Shown one piece after another: positions 15,902-21,238 of a stretch of DNA of 24,000 bases (position 1 is the stretch's first letter; every line of letters begins with the position of its first letter). Location: NCBI RefSeq assembly GCF_008935075.1, contig NZ_CP044545.1, positions 2,769,587-2,793,586 on the forward strand. The letters run 5' to 3'. The stretch is from Pradoshia sp. D12. GTDB taxonomy: Bacteria; Bacillota; Bacilli; Bacillales; Pradoshiaceae. The notes beneath the pieces were generated by a model. It was not told the origin of the DNA. It saw only the letters and a list, made by a program, of their open reading frames with translations, and made no database searches. Both the position numbers and the translations under genes were made by a program.

Positions 15902-16510
15902 TTATTTAAATTCTCCACGATACAACCATGGAAAAAGGCCATCTAAAAATCGTTCAGTTGCCGGCATAAAATAGGAACCATAATGATAGTCAGGATCAAG
16001 AGTCGTAATAATCCAAGTGCCCTTAGTTGATTGTTCATCTATATACAGTACAGATCCGCCATCATCCGTAGCTATAAGTGTGGTAGCATGCTCTGGTGGC
16101 CAAAATACTCCGTGTTGATGCCATGTTGAATCCTCAAGCGTAATATACTTAAAAAATTCATGGTCATCATTTTTAGTTACTAACCCACTATTTGCATTTT
16201 CTTCAAGCCACCACCAAAAATTCGTCTCGCGTTCTTCCCATTTTTGATTAGGGAGCCATTCCCATGGCTGTGGACCCATAGCCACAATAATACCGCCCTG
16301 ATCAGCAAACTCATAGAACTTCTCTTTATTATCAAGCAGTATTTGACCATTTAATTGAGAAGGAACAATCAACACATCAAATCCTGTTAAATCAAAATCT
16401 TTCAATTCAAGCTGATAAATAAGAGAGTCTATGAATTGCGCATACTTTGGCTCATGAAAAGTTCTATAATGCGGCGCATGCCCGCCATAAATCACAGCTA
16501 TTTTTCTCAT
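15902..16510 (-). CDS. Uncharacterised cytoplasmic protein, paralogue B of a two-gene pair; possibly ThuA-like / class-I glutamine-amidotransferase-like fold
   Basis: 202 aa with no signal peptide or TM segment. The ATG shares one nucleotide with the upstream stop (TAATG at 16512..16508), and AAGGAG lies upstream inside the preceding gene. By eye it is about 35-40 percent identical to the upstream gene in two blocks (VLIV...KEKFYEFADQGGIIV..G...EWLP and PPEHA...DGG..LYID..STKGTWI). The fold assignment is pattern recognition only. Confidence 0.7.
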   Translation of the reverse strand: MRKIAVIYGGHAPHYRTFHEPKYAQFIDSLIYQLELKDFDLTGFDVLIVPSQLNGQILLDNKEKFYEFADQGGIIVAMGPQPWEWLPNQKWEERETNFWWWLEENANSGLVTKNDDHEFFKYITLEDSTWHQHGVFWPPEHATTLIATDDGGSVLYIDEQSTKGTWIITTLDPDYHYGSYFMPATERFLDGLFPWLYRGEFK

Positions 16511-17127
16511 TATGCCTCAACTCCTTTGGTGCGTACTATTTCCTTCTTAAGAACCTCTATAAAATGAGGAGTTATTTGATTTGTTGTGTTTTTCCGCTGA
16601 CCATATCCTAATAAACTCCTGCCAGCATGAACAATAACTGTCCCATTCGTTGTTTCACGATCAATGTACGTAATGGCCTTACCATCTGTAAATGTTAGGC
16701 AAATCTCCGCATGTTTCGGTGGCAAATAAAAACCTCTTGCAAAGAAACCTGCAACACCCTTCGTATATACCATATCCTCTACTTTTACACCTTTAAAAAT
16801 CGGTGAATCCTCAGGAACCTCTACTAGGTAATCCTGATGGCCGCGAATCTTCTTCGGCATCATTGGCGTACAGCCTGGCAGCCATTCTCTGAATAAGTGG
16901 CCACAAAAGACAACAATCTTTCCTTCGTTTAAGAATTGCTCTATTTTTTCTTTATGTTTATACAAATACTCCTGATCTGCAAAATCCGTAATAACCAAAA
17001 CTTTGTATGGAGCCAATTCAATGTTTGCAAACTCATATTCCATTAATTTAGTATGTTGACCGGATGATAATTCTGTTTTATAACCAAATGCATGATTCGG
17101 ACATAGTTCCAGTATTTTAAGTTCCAT
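16510..17127 (-). CDS. Uncharacterised cytoplasmic protein, paralogue A of a two-gene pair; possibly ThuA-like / class-I glutamine-amidotransferase-like fold
   Basis: The start is set at ATG 17127 (MELKILELCPNH...), with AAGGAGGAG at complement 17131-17139. This gives 205 aa. The track's 12-codon upstream extension runs towards repeat unit 1, overlaps it by 13 nt (17151-17163), and has no RBS. Conserved blocks shared with the downstream gene are VLVI...KEKIEQFLNEGKIVVFCGHLFREWLP and PPKHA...DGK.ITYIDRETTNGTVI. Confidence 0.7.
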   Translation of the reverse strand: MELKILELCPNHAFGYKTELSSGQHTKLMEYEFANIELAPYKVLVITDFADQEYLYKHKEKIEQFLNEGKIVVFCGHLFREWLPGCTPMMPKKIRGHQDYLVEVPEDSPIFKGVKVEDMVYTKGVAGFFARGFYLPPKHAEICLTFTDGKAITYIDRETTNGTVIVHAGRSLLGYGQRKNTTNQITPHFIEVLKKEIVRTKGVEA

Positions 17128-17150
17128 TGTATCTCCTCCTTGTGTTGAGT

Positions 17151-17273
17151 AATCTAGCTTCAACTCCTAACTCCTCGAGTCATAAGTGTAGCCACTACAG
17201 GAGGAAAGATCACCTCCCTACGTGCCTCCTCTTATGCTTGTCGGAGCTGGGCAGTCGTTTCAGCTTTTTGCGC
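17151..17273 (+). repeat. Repeat unit 1 (basic form, about 120 bp)
   Basis: AATCTAGCTTCAACTCCTAACTCCTCGAGTCATAAG + central hairpins (TGTAG-CCA-CTACA and GGAGG...CCTCC) + CTTATGCTTGTCGGAGCTGGGCAGTCGTTTCAGCTTTTTG. It ends 11 nt from the RBS of paralogue A. Confidence 0.85.
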
Positions 17274-17520
17274 AATCTAGCTTCAACGGCTAGAAGCTCA
17301 GGACATAAGCATAGTCTCTGCGGAGGGCTACAGGACGTAGGTCACGAAGGCGTTGCCACACGATGTGGCGCTCTTAGCCTTTGTTCCTTAAAGCCTTCCC
17401 CTACGAGCCTCTGTCTTATGCTCTTCGCGGGCCTACAGGATGTAGGTCATGAAGACGTTGCCACACGACGTGGCGCATTTAGTCTTCGTTCCTTAAATCA
17501 GCCGTCTCAGCTTTTTATTT
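17274..17520 (+). repeat. Repeat unit 2 (basic unit carrying two copies of the ~65-nt B module)
   Basis: Positions 17274-17428 recur at 17769-17923 with 153/155 identity (mismatches at 17389 and 17393). Positions 17414-17518 recur at 17662-17766 with 105/105 identity. Confidence 0.9.
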
Positions 17521-17768
17521 AATCCAGCTTCAGGGCCTAGCCGCTCGAGGTCGTAAGAATAGCCACTACGGAGGCCAACACGATGTTGGTCACAAAGACG
17601 TTACCACAGGATGTGGTGTCTTTAGTCTTTGTTCCATCAAACACTCTCCCTGCGCACCTCCTCTTATGCTCTTCGCGGGCCTACAGGATGTAGGTCATGA
17701 AGACGTTGCCACACGACGTGGCGCATTTAGTCTTCGTTCCTTAAATCAGCCGTCTCAGCTTTTTATGT
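17521..17768 (+). repeat. Repeat unit 3 (diverged head and diverged B module, then an exact copy of the unit-2 tail)
   Basis: The head AATCCAGCTTCAGGGCCTAGCCGCTCGAGGTCGTAAG is diverged. The B module at about 17573-17637 has compensatory stem changes. Positions 17662-17766 are identical to 17414-17518. Confidence 0.88.
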
Positions 17769-17953
17769 AATCTAGCTTCAACGGCTAGAAGCTCAGGACA
17801 TAAGCATAGTCTCTGCGGAGGGCTACAGGACGTAGGTCACGAAGGCGTTGCCACACGATGTGGCGCTCTTAGCCTTTGTTCCTAAAAACCTTCCCCTACG
17901 AGCCTCTGTCTTATGCTCTTCGCTTCTGGGCAAGCCGTTTCAGCTTTTTATTC
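17769..17953 (+). repeat. Repeat unit 4 (near-exact copy of the first 155 bp of unit 2, plus a short tail)
   Basis: Positions 17769-17923 match 17274-17428 with 2 mismatches. The tail is TTCTGGGCAAGCCGTTTCAGCTTTTTATTC. Confidence 0.9.
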
Positions 17954-18073
17954 AATCTAGCTTCGACTCCTAGGAGCTCGAGTCATAAGCAAATACTCTG
18001 CGGGGAAGAACTTTCCCTTCGAGTATTCGTCTTATGCTCTTCGCTCCTGTTCAGTCGTCTCAGCTTTTTATTT
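17954..18073 (+). repeat. Repeat unit 5 (basic form); overlaps the 3' end of the ABC ATPase gene
   Basis: Contains the 10-bp palindrome CTCCTAGGAG (17968-17977) and a long hairpin, CATAAGC-AAATACTC-TGCG-GGGAA...TTCCC-TTC-GAGTATT-CGT-CTTATG. It ends CAGCTTTTTATTT. The ATPase stop codon (17983-17985) lies inside it. Confidence 0.88.
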
Positions 18074-18771
18074 TCAAAGTAGTAGCATGCCTCTACTAAT
18101 TTTTTTGTGTAGGGATGTGTTGAGTGGTTTAGAACTTGAGAAGGAGGTCCGCTTTCGACAATGGTCCCTGTCTCAAGTACCATCATTCGATCTGCTACAT
18201 TACCAACAGACTGAATTCGGTGCGTAATGTATAAAACAGACATATGGAATTCAACCTGAAATTTCTTTAATAGATTGATGATTAACTTTTCTGTTTGCGG
18301 ATCCAGAGCAGATGTAATTTCATCGGCTATTAAAAGCTTAGGATTCATTAATAAAGCTCTAATAATAGCTAATCTCTGTTTTTGTCCTCCGGAACATTGG
18401 CTTGGTTTTTTTGCTAATAATTCCGTCGGTAAGTCCGCCTTAGCCATTAATTCTTTTATTTTCTTTTTTATTGATTCCGGCTTTTCCTTTTTAAGTACAA
18501 GCGGTTCCATTAAACTTTTCTCCATTGTCCAAAACGGGTTAAAAGAACGCTCCGGATTTTGATAAATATATTGAATCGTACAACATGGCTCTTTTTCAAC
18601 AAGTCCGCTTGTCGGTGATTGAATTCCCATAATAATTTCAGCCGTTGTAGATTTACCTGACCCTGATTCTCCTATCAAACAAATAAATTCATTGCACAAA
18701 ATCTCAAAATTGATTCCCCGAAGCACATCCTGATTTTGGTAGCTTTTATTTACATCTTGAACTCTTAACAT
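17983..18771 (-). CDS. ABC transporter ATP-binding protein, Opp/Dpp/Nik family (OppF/NikE-like), with a repeat-encoded C-terminal tail
   Basis: 262 aa. Walker A is GESGSGKST, the signature is CSGGQKQRLAIIRAL, Walker B is LLIADEITSALD and the H-loop is YITHR. The HPYTKKL motif typical of this subfamily lies near the expected C-terminus. The last ~29 codons (NKKLRRLNRSEEHKTNTRRESSSPQSICL) read through repeat unit 5. Confidence 0.9.
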   Translation of the reverse strand: MLRVQDVNKSYQNQDVLRGINFEILCNEFICLIGESGSGKSTTAEIIMGIQSPTSGLVEKEPCCTIQYIYQNPERSFNPFWTMEKSLMEPLVLKKEKPESIKKKIKELMAKADLPTELLAKKPSQCSGGQKQRLAIIRALLMNPKLLIADEITSALDPQTEKLIINLLKKFQVEFHMSVLYITHRIQSVGNVADRMMVLETGTIVESGPPSQVLNHSTHPYTKKLVEACYYFENKKLRRLNRSEEHKTNTRRESSSPQSICL

Positions 18772-20265
18772 TCATTGCACTTCCTTCATCAGTTGTTTAT
18801 CACTTAAACTAAAAATCCGATCCGAGATTGCATACGCTACATCTAAATCATGCGTGATAAATAATAGACTGATCCCATGTGAACGGACTTTTTCCTCCAA
18901 GAGTTCCACTACTTCTTTTTTCAATATAGGATCCAGCGCACTTGTGCATTCATCTGCAATCACAAAAGCTGGTTTATTTACCAGAGAGAGTGCGATTAGA
19001 GCCCGGCTCAACATGCCGCCGGAGCACTCATGCGGATACTTGTCCAAAATGTTTTTATTTAACGCGACTTCCACAACACTCTTCTCAGCTTCCACAAGAC
19101 TTATACCGGTTTCTAAAAACTGTTCTTTTATTTTTAATACTGGATTAAATGCCGCCCGTGCATCCTGATAGATAAATGAGCATGTTTTCCAGTAGTGCTT
19201 TTCTCTAAAGGATTTCTCGCGAACAGACTCACCGTCATATGTAACATCGCCAACCCAGTTCTCAGCCGGCAATAATCCGTACAAAGCTCTGGCTATCGTT
19301 GTTTTTCCACTGCCTGAAGGCCCAATCAAACTCACAATCTCTCCTCTTTTGATCGTAAGCTCGATATTTTCAACAATAGTAGTCTCGTCATATGTAACCT
19401 GCTCCAAGTGACAATATAAATCGCGAGACTTGCCGGTCACTGGTGTTGTACCCTTTTGTTTCTTTGTTTTTGAAGACTTCTTCTGTTTATCTTCCAATAA
19501 GAAAGCAAGCGAAACCGATGTGATGAGCAGCATAATCACTGGCGGCAATACAATCCATGTCCATTGGCCAGTTAAGAAAATAGATGTTTGTGTGAAAGCC
19601 ATATTTAACATGCTTCCCCAAGATATCACATTCGGGTCACCCAAACCTAGGAATGCTAAACCTGCTTCTGTCAAAACAGCAGATTGAAATGTCATCACGA
19701 ATTTAGTCTTTATGATGGGCTGCAATTGCGGAAGAATATGAGATTTCAATACATAAAAAGAACTGCCACCAAACAGCGCCGATGCTTTTACAAATTCTCT
19801 TTCTTTTAATGTTAAAACTGAGGATCGAATAATTCTCATATAACCCGGCCACGATAAAAGACTTAAAATGATTACAAGCTGAATTACACCAGAACCCGTA
19901 AAAGCAACAACCAATAATATCAAAAGCAAATTTGGAAGCACTAATAAAATATTGGCCAGCCCGTTAATGAATTTATCGAATTTCGGCAAATATCCCGCTG
20001 CCAGTCCCAGCAATACACTTAAAACTGTCGAACACAGAGCAATACAAAGTCCAATTAAGACACTTGTACGGGTTCCATATAATAATTGGCTAAATATATC
20101 CTGACCTAAACGATTTGTACCCAGCCAATGCTCAGATGAAGGAGGTTCAAACAATCCTCCGCTATAATCCATTGCTGAATAAGGAGAAAGTAATGGACCA
20201 AAGAATGCCAACAGCATGACCACGGCTAAACAAAGTAAAGGGAACTTATAGAACTTTTTCAACAT
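18772..20265 (-). CDS. Fused ABC permease (OppC/DppC/NikC-like) and ATP-binding domain (OppD/NikD-like)
   Basis: A single open frame. The N-terminal ~270 aa are polytopic. A Lys-rich linker follows (EDKQKKSSKTKKQKGTTPVTGKSRD). The NBD has Walker A GPSGSGKTT, signature CSGGMLSRALIA, Walker B FVIADECTSALD and H-loop FITHD. The start is set at ATG 20265 (MLKKFYKF), with GAGGGGG upstream. The track start at 20283 is a less likely extension. Confidence 0.88.
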   Translation of the reverse strand: MLKKFYKFPLLCLAVVMLLAFFGPLLSPYSAMDYSGGLFEPPSSEHWLGTNRLGQDIFSQLLYGTRTSVLIGLCIALCSTVLSVLLGLAAGYLPKFDKFINGLANILLVLPNLLLILLVVAFTGSGVIQLVIILSLLSWPGYMRIIRSSVLTLKEREFVKASALFGGSSFYVLKSHILPQLQPIIKTKFVMTFQSAVLTEAGLAFLGLGDPNVISWGSMLNMAFTQTSIFLTGQWTWIVLPPVIMLLITSVSLAFLLEDKQKKSSKTKKQKGTTPVTGKSRDLYCHLEQVTYDETTIVENIELTIKRGEIVSLIGPSGSGKTTIARALYGLLPAENWVGDVTYDGESVREKSFREKHYWKTCSFIYQDARAAFNPVLKIKEQFLETGISLVEAEKSVVEVALNKNILDKYPHECSGGMLSRALIALSLVNKPAFVIADECTSALDPILKKEVVELLEEKVRSHGISLLFITHDLDVAYAISDRIFSLSDKQLMKEVQ

Positions 20266-21238
20266 GTTTGCCCCCTCTAACACGTGGATCTAGTTTAGGA
20301 TAAATAGAATCTGCCAGTGCATTGCAAATCAAAATCATAACAGCAAATAATAAAAACAGACCATGCATCAATGGGTAATCCCGTGAAAGAATGGACTCTT
20401 TTAATAACTGCCCAATTCCCGGGTAAGAAAATAACGTCTCTACAAAGATTGCTCCTGTAAAGGTGTAGCCAATTCTTATCATAATCAGAGTAAATATAGG
20501 TATTAAAACATTTTTAAACGCATGTCTGAAAACTAACCGGATTTCCCTGACGCCCTTCATCTTCGCAAATTCAATGTAAGGTGAGGAAGCTACCTGAATC
20601 GTTTCATTACGCACGAGTAAATAGATCCTTGTCAGGTTTACCATGGTTAATGTCACTATTGGTAAAATAGCATACTTAGCCGCATCATTAACTTTTACCC
20701 ATATTGATTCGCTATCCATAAACGGTGTATGGGCTCCGCTCATTGGAAGCATATCCAGCATAACTCCAAACACAATAAGCAATAGCATACCGAATAAAAA
20801 TTCGGGTAAAGCGCCAATTGCCAGCATTGTTGACATGAATGTTTTATCACCTTTTTTATGATGAACCCAACCCGATAGCAGTCCTAAAAAAATACCAATT
20901 ACAATGGATAGAACAGAAGAAATTCCGACAATCCATAGCGTGTAAGAAATATGGTCCATTATGATATCATTAACAGGCAATTTATAAGTATATGAAAATC
21001 CAAAATCAAACTGTACGATGCCAACTATATAATCAATAAATTGTTCGGCCATTGAATCATTCAGCCCATAATATTCAATCATTGAATTCTTTTGTTGCTC
21101 TGTTAAAGTTGCACCACTTTCCTGCCCCTCTAAATATTCAAGAGGTCCCCCCGGCATTAGTCGAGGAAGAAAAAAATTTAAGAGAATCAAGATAAGAAGA
21201 AGAGAACCGTACAGCTTAAAAATTTTAATCATATTCAA
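20246..21238 (-). CDS. ABC transporter permease, OppB/DppB/NikB-like
   Basis: 330 aa with six predicted TM segments. It has the binding-protein-dependent transport EAA-type loop region (YIEFAKMKGVREIRLVFRHAFKN) and a C-terminal ...DPRVR motif. It overlaps both neighbouring genes. Confidence 0.9.
   Translation of the reverse strand: MNMIKIFKLYGSLLLILILLNFFLPRLMPGGPLEYLEGQESGATLTEQQKNSMIEYYGLNDSMAEQFIDYIVGIVQFDFGFSYTYKLPVNDIIMDHISYTLWIVGISSVLSIVIGIFLGLLSGWVHHKKGDKTFMSTMLAIGALPEFLFGMLLLIVFGVMLDMLPMSGAHTPFMDSESIWVKVNDAAKYAILPIVTLTMVNLTRIYLLVRNETIQVASSPYIEFAKMKGVREIRLVFRHAFKNVLIPIFTLIMIRIGYTFTGAIFVETLFSYPGIGQLLKESILSRDYPLMHGLFLLFAVMILICNALADSIYPKLDPRVRGGKHVEKVL

Follow-up and report, generated by a model that had tools for sequence, protein, structure and literature searches.

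The stretch of Pradoshia sp. D12 DNA analyzed here (the window; 24,000 nucleotides [nt]) contains an operon that codes, in order, for an Opp/Dpp-type solute-binding protein, a permease, a permease-ATPase fusion, a second ATPase, and two proteins of 205 and 202 amino acids (aa), and all of these neighboring genes are on the minus strand. Between the second ATPase gene and the 205-aa gene lies an array of 919 bases (17151..18069, minus strand), which we show to be a tandem array of a structured interspersed repeat of the Bacillaceae. It consists of five head-to-tail hairpin units with 4-nt spacers, hereafter carrier units, and it reads 5′ to 3′ on the same strand as the flanking genes; the unit numbers (1 to 5), taken over from a preliminary description of the locus, ascend along the plus strand. 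In regular-expression counts, the window has just five matches to the start motif AATC[TC]AGCTTC, at 17151, 17274, 17521, 17769, and 17954, and the end motif CAGCTTTTT finishes at 17269, 17516, 17764, 17949, and 18069; one extra CAGCTTTTT match, at 1327, is unrelated. Segment 17274-17428 is identical to 17769-17923 at 153/155 positions and 17414-17518 to 17662-17766 at 105/105, and, by direct reading of the sequence, CGTTTCAGCT agrees at 8/10 with AGCTTCAACG in reverse complement. The preliminary description had reported the same-orientation units, their start and end motifs, the 8/10 ends, and two positions of insertion; all of this we could reproduce, and the two identities it quoted are exact.

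Unit 5 (17954..18069), the first to be transcribed, is a basic 116-nt carrier hairpin with an RNA minimum free energy (MFE) of −51.7 kcal/mol and an nhmmer E-value of 2.9e-27; in the transcribed orientation it begins AAAAAGCUGA and finishes GAAGCUAGAUU. Unit 1 (17151..17269), the last transcribed, is likewise basic, at 119 nt (MFE −44.4 kcal/mol; nhmmer 2.1e-26). Unit 4 (17769..17949; 181 nt) carries a single inserted module in its apical loop (site A), and units 3 (17521..17764; 244 nt) and 2 (17274..17516; 243 nt) carry modules at both site A and a second site, B; all five units are on the minus strand. In an E-INS-i alignment, the extra length is confined to two positions, the apex and one point in the transcribed 5′ arm, the latter being the position that the preliminary description gave, on the plus strand, as lying after the CTTATGCTCTTCGC arm. 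The carrier parts of the five units are pairwise 66-78% identical, with the exception of units 2 and 4 (92%), and unit E-values reach 1e-27 to 1e-35 with nhmmer; the repeat signal is far beyond chance. Tandem Repeats Finder reported nothing at the array, presumably because the unit lengths differ. The G+C content of the array is 48%, and that of the window ~38%.

The ~65-nt module corresponds to the Rfam family Bacillaceae-1 (RF01690). Five matches on the minus strand span the full model (positions 1-67 of 67); their scores, 70.8-80.7 bits, exceed the gathering score of 35, and their E-values are 1e-11 to 1e-14. They lie at site A of unit 4 (17822..17888; 70.8 bits), site B of unit 3 (17680..17746; 80.7 bits), site A of unit 3 (17575..17641; 73.7 bits), site B of unit 2 (17432..17498; 80.7 bits), and site A of unit 2 (17327..17393; 73.1 bits). 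The two site-B modules are identical (67/67), the site-A modules of units 2 and 4 match at 65/67 positions, and the other pairs are 75-85% identical. The host agrees with the Bacillaceae distribution of the family, the flanking 205-aa protein being 100% identical to a Pradoshia sp. D12 protein. No family could be named for the units in the preliminary description, which took a match to a catalogued family as an outcome that would count against it; such a match exists for the module only. For the carrier hairpin (~118 nt), which has no Rfam match even at E ≤ 10, the statement stands, and the rest of the window has no match above any Rfam threshold.

Comparison of carrier units from this and other loci supports a conserved fold. 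Our alignment A1 contains 31 distinct module-free units in 124 columns, from which RNAalifold predicts one hairpin with 18/28 pairs compensated; together with the folds of individual units, this bears out the earlier proposal that each unit forms one long hairpin. In a curated 40-pair structure, 88.2% of cells are paired, compared with 36-45% when the partners are slid by 1-3 columns, and both-sided changes occur at 27 pairs versus 9-16 in the slid controls. None of 500 shuffles reaches any observed structure measure, although the shuffle statistics overstate significance because repeat copies are not independent; the slid controls retain the relatedness of the copies, yet fall far below the observed pairing. 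Arm covariation is illustrated by GACGACU/AGGAGUC, GGGCCU/AGGCCC, and GUGUGCU/AGCACAC, and the GCAUAAG/CUUAUG stem is nearly invariant, with one double change to GCGUAAG/CUUACG. The 5′ end is conserved as AAAAAGCUGA, and the conserved unpaired or noncanonical elements are the 5′ AAAAAG, a G-N-N-C bulge, two tandem G.A/A.G sites (one of them replaced by G-C/C-G in other subtypes), CUAG, and the 3′ GAAGCURGAUU. A kink-turn was considered for the conserved GA loops and rejected, as the G.A pairs (columns 14-15/109-110) lie in a continuous helix and are Watson-Crick in other subtypes, and the kink-turn register needs GA at columns 32-33, which is not conserved.

Modules are found only in the apical loop (site A) or at a conserved 4-nt bulge (site B), and we show that the carrier accepts Bacillaceae-1 as an optional module at these two sites and none elsewhere; insertion at a loop or bulge keeps the carrier fold. 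Units 2 and 3 share an identical 105-nt 5′ part that is unpaired with their own 3′ arms, marking them as recent recombinants; the 5′ arm of unit 3 was recently copied from that of unit 2. The unit hairpins of the array have predicted MFEs of −44 to −86 kcal/mol, and the whole array folds at −341.5 kcal/mol (z = −8.0 versus shuffles).

The fold is strand-biased. The AAAAAGCUG strand folds better than its complement in 29/31 units (mean MFE −51.2 versus −45.6 kcal/mol; Wilcoxon p = 1.6e-6), and its advantage is also seen with DNA parameters. This strand is the Rfam module strand, the operon strand here, and the ribosomal RNA (rRNA) strand, the last both at two 16S-23S spacer loci described below (contigs L133 and L135) and for the Geobacillus and Bacillus pumilus examples of the alignment of Weinberg and colleagues. 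The opposite strand folds stably too, and there every unit finishes CAGCTTTTT, which raises the idea that the units are orientation-specific terminators or insulators, a plus-strand hairpin followed by TTTTT that blocks antisense or convergent transcription into the operon. We regard this as very unlikely: the stem beside the T-run is just a 4-bp AGCT, and a signal scan flagged weak sites inside the modules only, not at the unit ends. Moreover, one antisense array (L039a) is all that separates the stop of a gene from the ribosome-binding site of the same-strand gene that follows, such that co-transcription of the latter would cross its units in the "terminator" orientation, and the arrays on L130 and L134 are likewise just upstream of a gene start.

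The position of the array in the operon suggests how it came to be there. The second ATP-binding cassette (ABC) transporter ATPase gene (17983..18771, minus strand; ABC_tran and oligo_HPY domains) is homologous to its orthologues as far as …YYFEN, and its last 30 codons (18072-17983) cross unit 5; the open reading frame (ORF) has no stop codon of its own but continues from YYFEN into KKLRRLNRSEEHK, with the stop lying inside the repeat. Repeat-derived sequence has thus taken the place of the native C-terminus of ~8 residues that is seen in Peribacillus. In the orthologue of a Pradoshia metagenome-assembled genome (MAG), 8 codons read into its first unit. At the other end, a strong ribosome-binding site (AGGAGGAG; 17133..17140, minus strand) lies 10 nt after the last unit and precedes the 205-aa gene (16510..17127, minus strand). 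In the same operon of Peribacillus simplex, the ATPase (242 aa) ends 12 nt before the orthologous downstream gene, such that the locus there is an empty site, of the kind the preliminary description had suggested looking for in relatives. The array lies in an A-rich tract at the very end of the ATPase gene, and from this comparison we infer that it arrived by insertion. No target-site duplication is seen when the flanks (ending GAAAAT and resuming ACTCAA) are compared with the Peribacillus empty site, although the species are distant and small duplications could be obscured. The signal scan found no promoter-like or terminator-like sites on the minus strand between 17128 and 18100, and downstream expression presumably needs transcription through the array.

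Arrays differ between strains. Among the contigs that we refer to by L-numbers, L001 and L002 are two other assemblies of the source species, and their ATPases are identical, including the repeat-derived tail, but their arrays are different. The window allele has five units; L002 also has five, with the site-B module of unit 2 deleted (a 65-nt loss with the junction GAGAC/CTGTAGG), whereas L001 has four, the last being a unit 2/unit 1 hybrid joined at CTTATG. The unit 2 site-B module is absent from both, with the same deletion junction. The last unit is different again on a metagenome contig (L141) that shares the downstream gene, and the orthologous array of the Pradoshia MAG (L068) differs in its unit composition and holds only one module. 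These differences show unit-unit recombination and module loss, and with three alleles and a fourth on the metagenome contig, the recent local duplication or recombination proposed earlier is supported. The carrier bulge and the bases next to it (G-N-N-C-A-G-G; A1 columns 19-24) resemble the 3′ end of the second hairpin of the module (CUGYAGG), and the strain deletion allele keeps exactly CTGTAGG (L001 7256-7280); module-free units might therefore be derived by deletion from module-bearing ones, rather than being ancestral.

Copies occur well beyond this operon. In the Pradoshia MAG, full-length units were found with nhmmer at at least four loci on three contigs (two on L039, and one each on L068 and L100), and in one metagenome (JAEIGA01) on nine contigs. 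A scan of a genome collection with a permissive 18-mer, AAAAAGCTGARACGRCTG, gave mostly chance hits among the matches listed, the real ones being Pradoshia, Virgibacillus, and Lentibacillus loci, with all counts being at least values; a metagenome scan with a specific structured pattern gave 17 loci, 13 of which were confirmed by the family profile. The expectation of a modular, genome-dispersed family is thus confirmed, and the units are not unique to this locus. In Virgibacillus byunsanensis (L090 2670-2913, minus strand) and Lentibacillus halophilus (L117 4431-4676, plus strand), two tandem units start at the stop codon of rpmE (L31); the use of this site in two genera reflects either a hot spot or an old insertion that was retained. 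Upstream of rpmE, L090 further carries an L31-Firmicutes leader (RF03156). A single unit, sense to the rRNA, lies in the 16S-23S spacer on L133 (2078-2196, plus strand) and L135 (3237-3355, minus strand), where it ends 9 nt before the 23S rRNA 5′ end; the two contigs are from different metagenomes, one of them of Lake Vida brine.

The genes that flank the dispersed copies are ordinary housekeeping genes. Sense copies start at or overlap the stop codons of COX4, RsgA, NIF3, and rpmE genes, and of the ATPase gene in the window, whereas antisense or divergent copies lie between ArsB-like and DUF6897 genes and upstream of genes for CoaX, a GntR regulator, and a PF03601 (Cons_hypoth698) protein. 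Within every array seen, here and elsewhere, all units are head to tail, and arrays often end in a unit that keeps just its 5′ part. At eight more loci the carrier comes with Bacillaceae-1, which nearly always occupies site B in the same orientation as the carrier. On L140 (1-75), a module is inverted after the carrier 5′ arm, with AGGA loops on the carrier strand, the sole case among ~15 module-carrier pairs.

The main rival to a role in RNA is that the repeat is a purely selfish DNA element, its hairpin serving a transposase or recombinase as single-stranded DNA substrate, as with repetitive extragenic palindromic (REP) sequences and their REP-associated tyrosine transposases (RAYTs), or with IS200/IS605, and with nesting into loops by the same mechanism and no role for the RNA. 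Dispersal among unrelated housekeeping loci, the occurrence of both orientations, truncated end units, the inverted L140 module, and rapid turnover between strains would all fit, and under DNA parameters, too, the folding of the units is significant (z = −5.5 for unit 5 and −2.1 for unit 1). We think this possible, but on balance doubtful. No transposase adjoins any array examined, and there are neither terminal inverted repeats of the length found in miniature inverted-repeat transposable elements (MITEs) nor a target-site duplication relative to the Peribacillus empty site. Searches with blastn of 72,556 plasmid and 50,697 phage records found no similar sequence, and of three matches to the structured pattern in IMG/VR none was confirmed by the family profile. 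The two arrays that lie 4 kb apart in opposite orientation argue against a strict replication-strand rule; such a rule was also tried and rejected on local GC-skew, the sign of which is mixed. The sense placement in rRNA spacers across several genera, the shared rpmE site in two genera, and the folding advantage of one strand likewise speak against an element that acts as DNA alone.

What is known of Bacillaceae-1 offers a further possibility. Its discoverers wrote that the motif "likely functions in trans" and sometimes adjoins rRNA operons, and they took its RUCCU loops to suggest a homodimeric protein (Weinberg et al. 2010 supplement, PMC2864571); Gardner and Eldai (2015) noted the discoverers' uncertainty about its strand, and a resemblance of the reverse complement to CsrA sites (PMC4333381). 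Beyond these two papers, the literature searched yielded no description of the carrier and no function for RF01690. Each of the five modules has one RUCCU and one RUCGU loop in the model alignments, and their clustering could make the array a multivalent decoy of 10 loops, a trans-acting small RNA (sRNA) or sponge for a dimeric RNA-binding protein, with the modules as the functional part. This we consider unlikely. The minus-strand scan found no promoter or terminator that would make an sRNA gene within the array; the modules instead lie inside carrier hairpins inside an operon, and at all carrier-family loci they are embedded in or abut a carrier unit, or lie inside an operon or precursor rRNA (pre-rRNA). 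The loops on the operon strand are UCCU or UCGU, not the GGA bound by CsrA, and the CsrA proposal concerns the opposite strand. The modules are also dispensable, one having been deleted between strains and only one being present in the orthologous MAG array.

REP sequences have a classical role as 3′-exonuclease barriers that stabilize the upstream cistron. By analogy, we propose, as the most likely reading, that the array is a co-transcribed, recombining structured repeat that acts, if at all, on RNA, as a nuclease barrier or protein dock; taken as a whole, we hold this account to be about evenly poised between right and wrong. The array separates two genes that are 12 nt apart in Peribacillus and captures the ATPase frame for 30 codons. 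The lack of a promoter or terminator signal of its own, together with the presumed dependence of the downstream genes on upstream transcription, suggests that the polycistronic mRNA probably includes it, in its best-folding orientation, and each unit would then form a hairpin of −44 to −86 kcal/mol in the message. Such a block of hairpins could serve as a ribonuclease barrier or processing site, like intercistronic REP or BOX elements, and could make transporter-cistron stability independent of that of the genes downstream, while the 10 RUCCU/RUCGU loops may be docking sites for a candidate RNA-binding protein, probably dimeric. Spread to new loci would need some mobilizing or recombination mechanism.

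Several observations weigh against this proposal. Four loci (L039a, L130, L134, and L140) are antisense to or divergent from the adjacent gene, such that sense transcription is not universal, and L039 carries two arrays in opposite orientation. The truncated end units and the chimeric units 2 and 3 with unpaired arms look like decay, not selection. Half of the module loops in the array are UCGU, where the consensus is UCCU. The structural support is tempered by the mentioned non-independence of the copies, the excess of G-U over A-C is modest (42 versus 26), and a DNA hairpin kept as a transposase substrate would also maintain covariation. Transcription through the array and an effect on RNA decay are both matters that we infer.

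We also entertain, as a rather improbable speculation, a broader role in which carrier and Bacillaceae-1 together form a conserved modular cis-acting RNA domain that, in pre-rRNA spacers, behind ribosomal-protein genes, and within operons, recruits a dimeric protein (such as a chaperone, an assembly factor, or a processing nuclease). Such a domain would serve as a portable signal for RNA processing or stability, spreading as a repeat and enlarging through the nesting of domains in its own loops.

The modules share with Bacillaceae-1 their two hairpins, 5′ AAGGA tail, RUCNU loops, Bacillaceae host, and copies beside or inside rRNA operons; they differ in that Rfam types the family as "Gene; sRNA", whereas here it is an optional insert without transcription signals of its own, present up to twice per unit. 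The flanks in Weinberg's Stockholm file show that in Bacillus licheniformis and Bacillus subtilis, Bacillaceae-1 caps a ~180-nt hairpin that follows terminators or stop codons; in the 16S-23S spacer of Geobacillus kaustophilus it is contained in AAAAGCGGAGGCUCG...CGAGCCGAAGCUAGAC, a B-site-like composite, and in B. pumilus it ends 6 nt before the mature 16S rRNA, with both the Geobacillus and the B. pumilus examples sense to the rRNA. The ~180-190-nt repeats of B. subtilis and B. licheniformis and the Geobacillus elements thus have the same architecture as ours, a long imperfect outer hairpin around Bacillaceae-1, which is at the apex in B. licheniformis and in the 5′ arm in Geobacillus. They also share its locations (after stop codons and terminators, and in rRNA spacers), and the Geobacillus termini (AAAAGCGGA... 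and ...GAAGCUAGAC) are similar to the carrier termini. The carrier profile does not match the Geobacillus or B. subtilis outer hairpins significantly (nhmmer E about 1), and we therefore claim shared architecture, and not proven common descent. The Bacillus and Geobacillus examples are single composite copies, whereas the carrier here also occurs module-free and in tandem arrays. The 1997 B. subtilis genome paper reportedly describes a 190-bp element repeated about ten times.

Among other repeats, we see the pneumococcal BOX element as the closest analogue. BOX has modular tandem subunits in variable number, and is intergenic, transcribed, predicted to fold, and able to affect neighboring expression (Delihas 2011, PMC3184786); it differs in its unrelated sequence, Streptococcus host, and boxA-boxB(n)-boxC order, whereas here whole hairpins repeat and a second element nests in their loops. 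The preliminary label of REP/bacterial interspersed mosaic element (BIME)- or MITE-like does not hold. Like REP and BIME, the units are extragenic, often intercistronic, clustered, and presumably transcribed as stem-loops, but REPs are 20-40-bp G+C-rich palindromes with a GTAG/CGTC tag at one end, and alternate in orientation in BIMEs (PMC3733652), whereas the basic units here are 116-120 nt, run head to tail, and have the ends AAAAAGCTGA and GAAGCTRGATT with no tag. Neither the 24-kb window nor the flanking DNA of the other arrays contains a RAYT transposase. Nor are there MITE terminal inverted repeats of 15-30 bp, the termini sharing AGCT/AGCT and the imperfect 8/10 match, and the repeat search reported no inverted repeats of ≥14 nt. 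The bcr1 repeat is also a transcribed interspersed repeat of Bacillaceae in a similar size class, in which compensatory changes keep an RNA structure; it is ~155 bp, flanked by 5-bp direct repeats, folded as a cruciform with two independent stem-loops, and restricted to the Bacillus cereus group (PMC3184786). We set our repeat apart from bcr1 by that description, as size, flanks, and host all differ.

The array also attracts gene calls. Plus-strand ORFs of 131 and 68 aa overlap it, and in the two other assemblies, gene callers placed antisense genes of 152 aa (L001 6984-7442, minus strand) and 155 aa (L002 7002-7469, minus strand) over it, the window equivalent of which is the 131-aa ORF (17127-17522, plus strand). 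None of the called ORFs has a Pfam domain; neither the unit lengths (116-244 nt) nor the 65-nt strain indel is divisible by three, such that no reading frame is kept, and the antisense ORFs are very probably spurious. That the array is coding sequence is hardly credible, and the same applies to a CRISPR array and to an assembly artifact: the units abut with 4-nt spacers in place of the unique spacers between short identical repeats that characterize CRISPR, and the array recurs, with variations, in independent assemblies and in metagenomes, and is not an artifact of assembly.

The finding is not categorically new, as it falls among bacterial structured interspersed repeats and Rfam already lists the module. 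Novelty appears to lie in the carrier family, the two defined sites at which it takes insertions, its arrangement in tandem arrays, and the implication that Bacillaceae-1 is a repeat module and not an sRNA gene. Listed in Rfam since 2010 as an sRNA, Bacillaceae-1 is, in Pradoshia and relatives at least, an optional insert of a larger repeated hairpin, and the flanks in the original alignment suggest the same status in Bacillus and Geobacillus. Flanking genes, rRNA contexts, and the folding asymmetry together indicate which Bacillaceae-1 strand matters. The covariation-supported carrier model can be used for genome-wide searching, and the natural alleles with and without modules, along with the empty site, are material for testing an effect on operon mRNA. 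For annotation, the locus holds a warning, with an ATPase ORF lengthened by 30 codons and very probably spurious 152- and 155-aa antisense ORFs in public assemblies.

The neighboring genes show two further features. The 205-aa protein and its orthologues carry the NCBI label "phosphate starvation-inducible protein PhoH", a name that looks unreliable, as the protein has no Pfam match, PhoH included; in Peribacillus its gene is likewise kept beside this ABC operon, and Lysinibacillus and some clostridia also have homologues. Upstream of the second ATPase gene, the permease-ATPase fusion gene (18772..20283, minus strand; 503 aa, BPD_transp_1 and ABC_tran) joins the second permease to the first ATPase; the Peribacillus orthologue has this fusion as well, and so does the orthologous operon on a Logan contig (L145).

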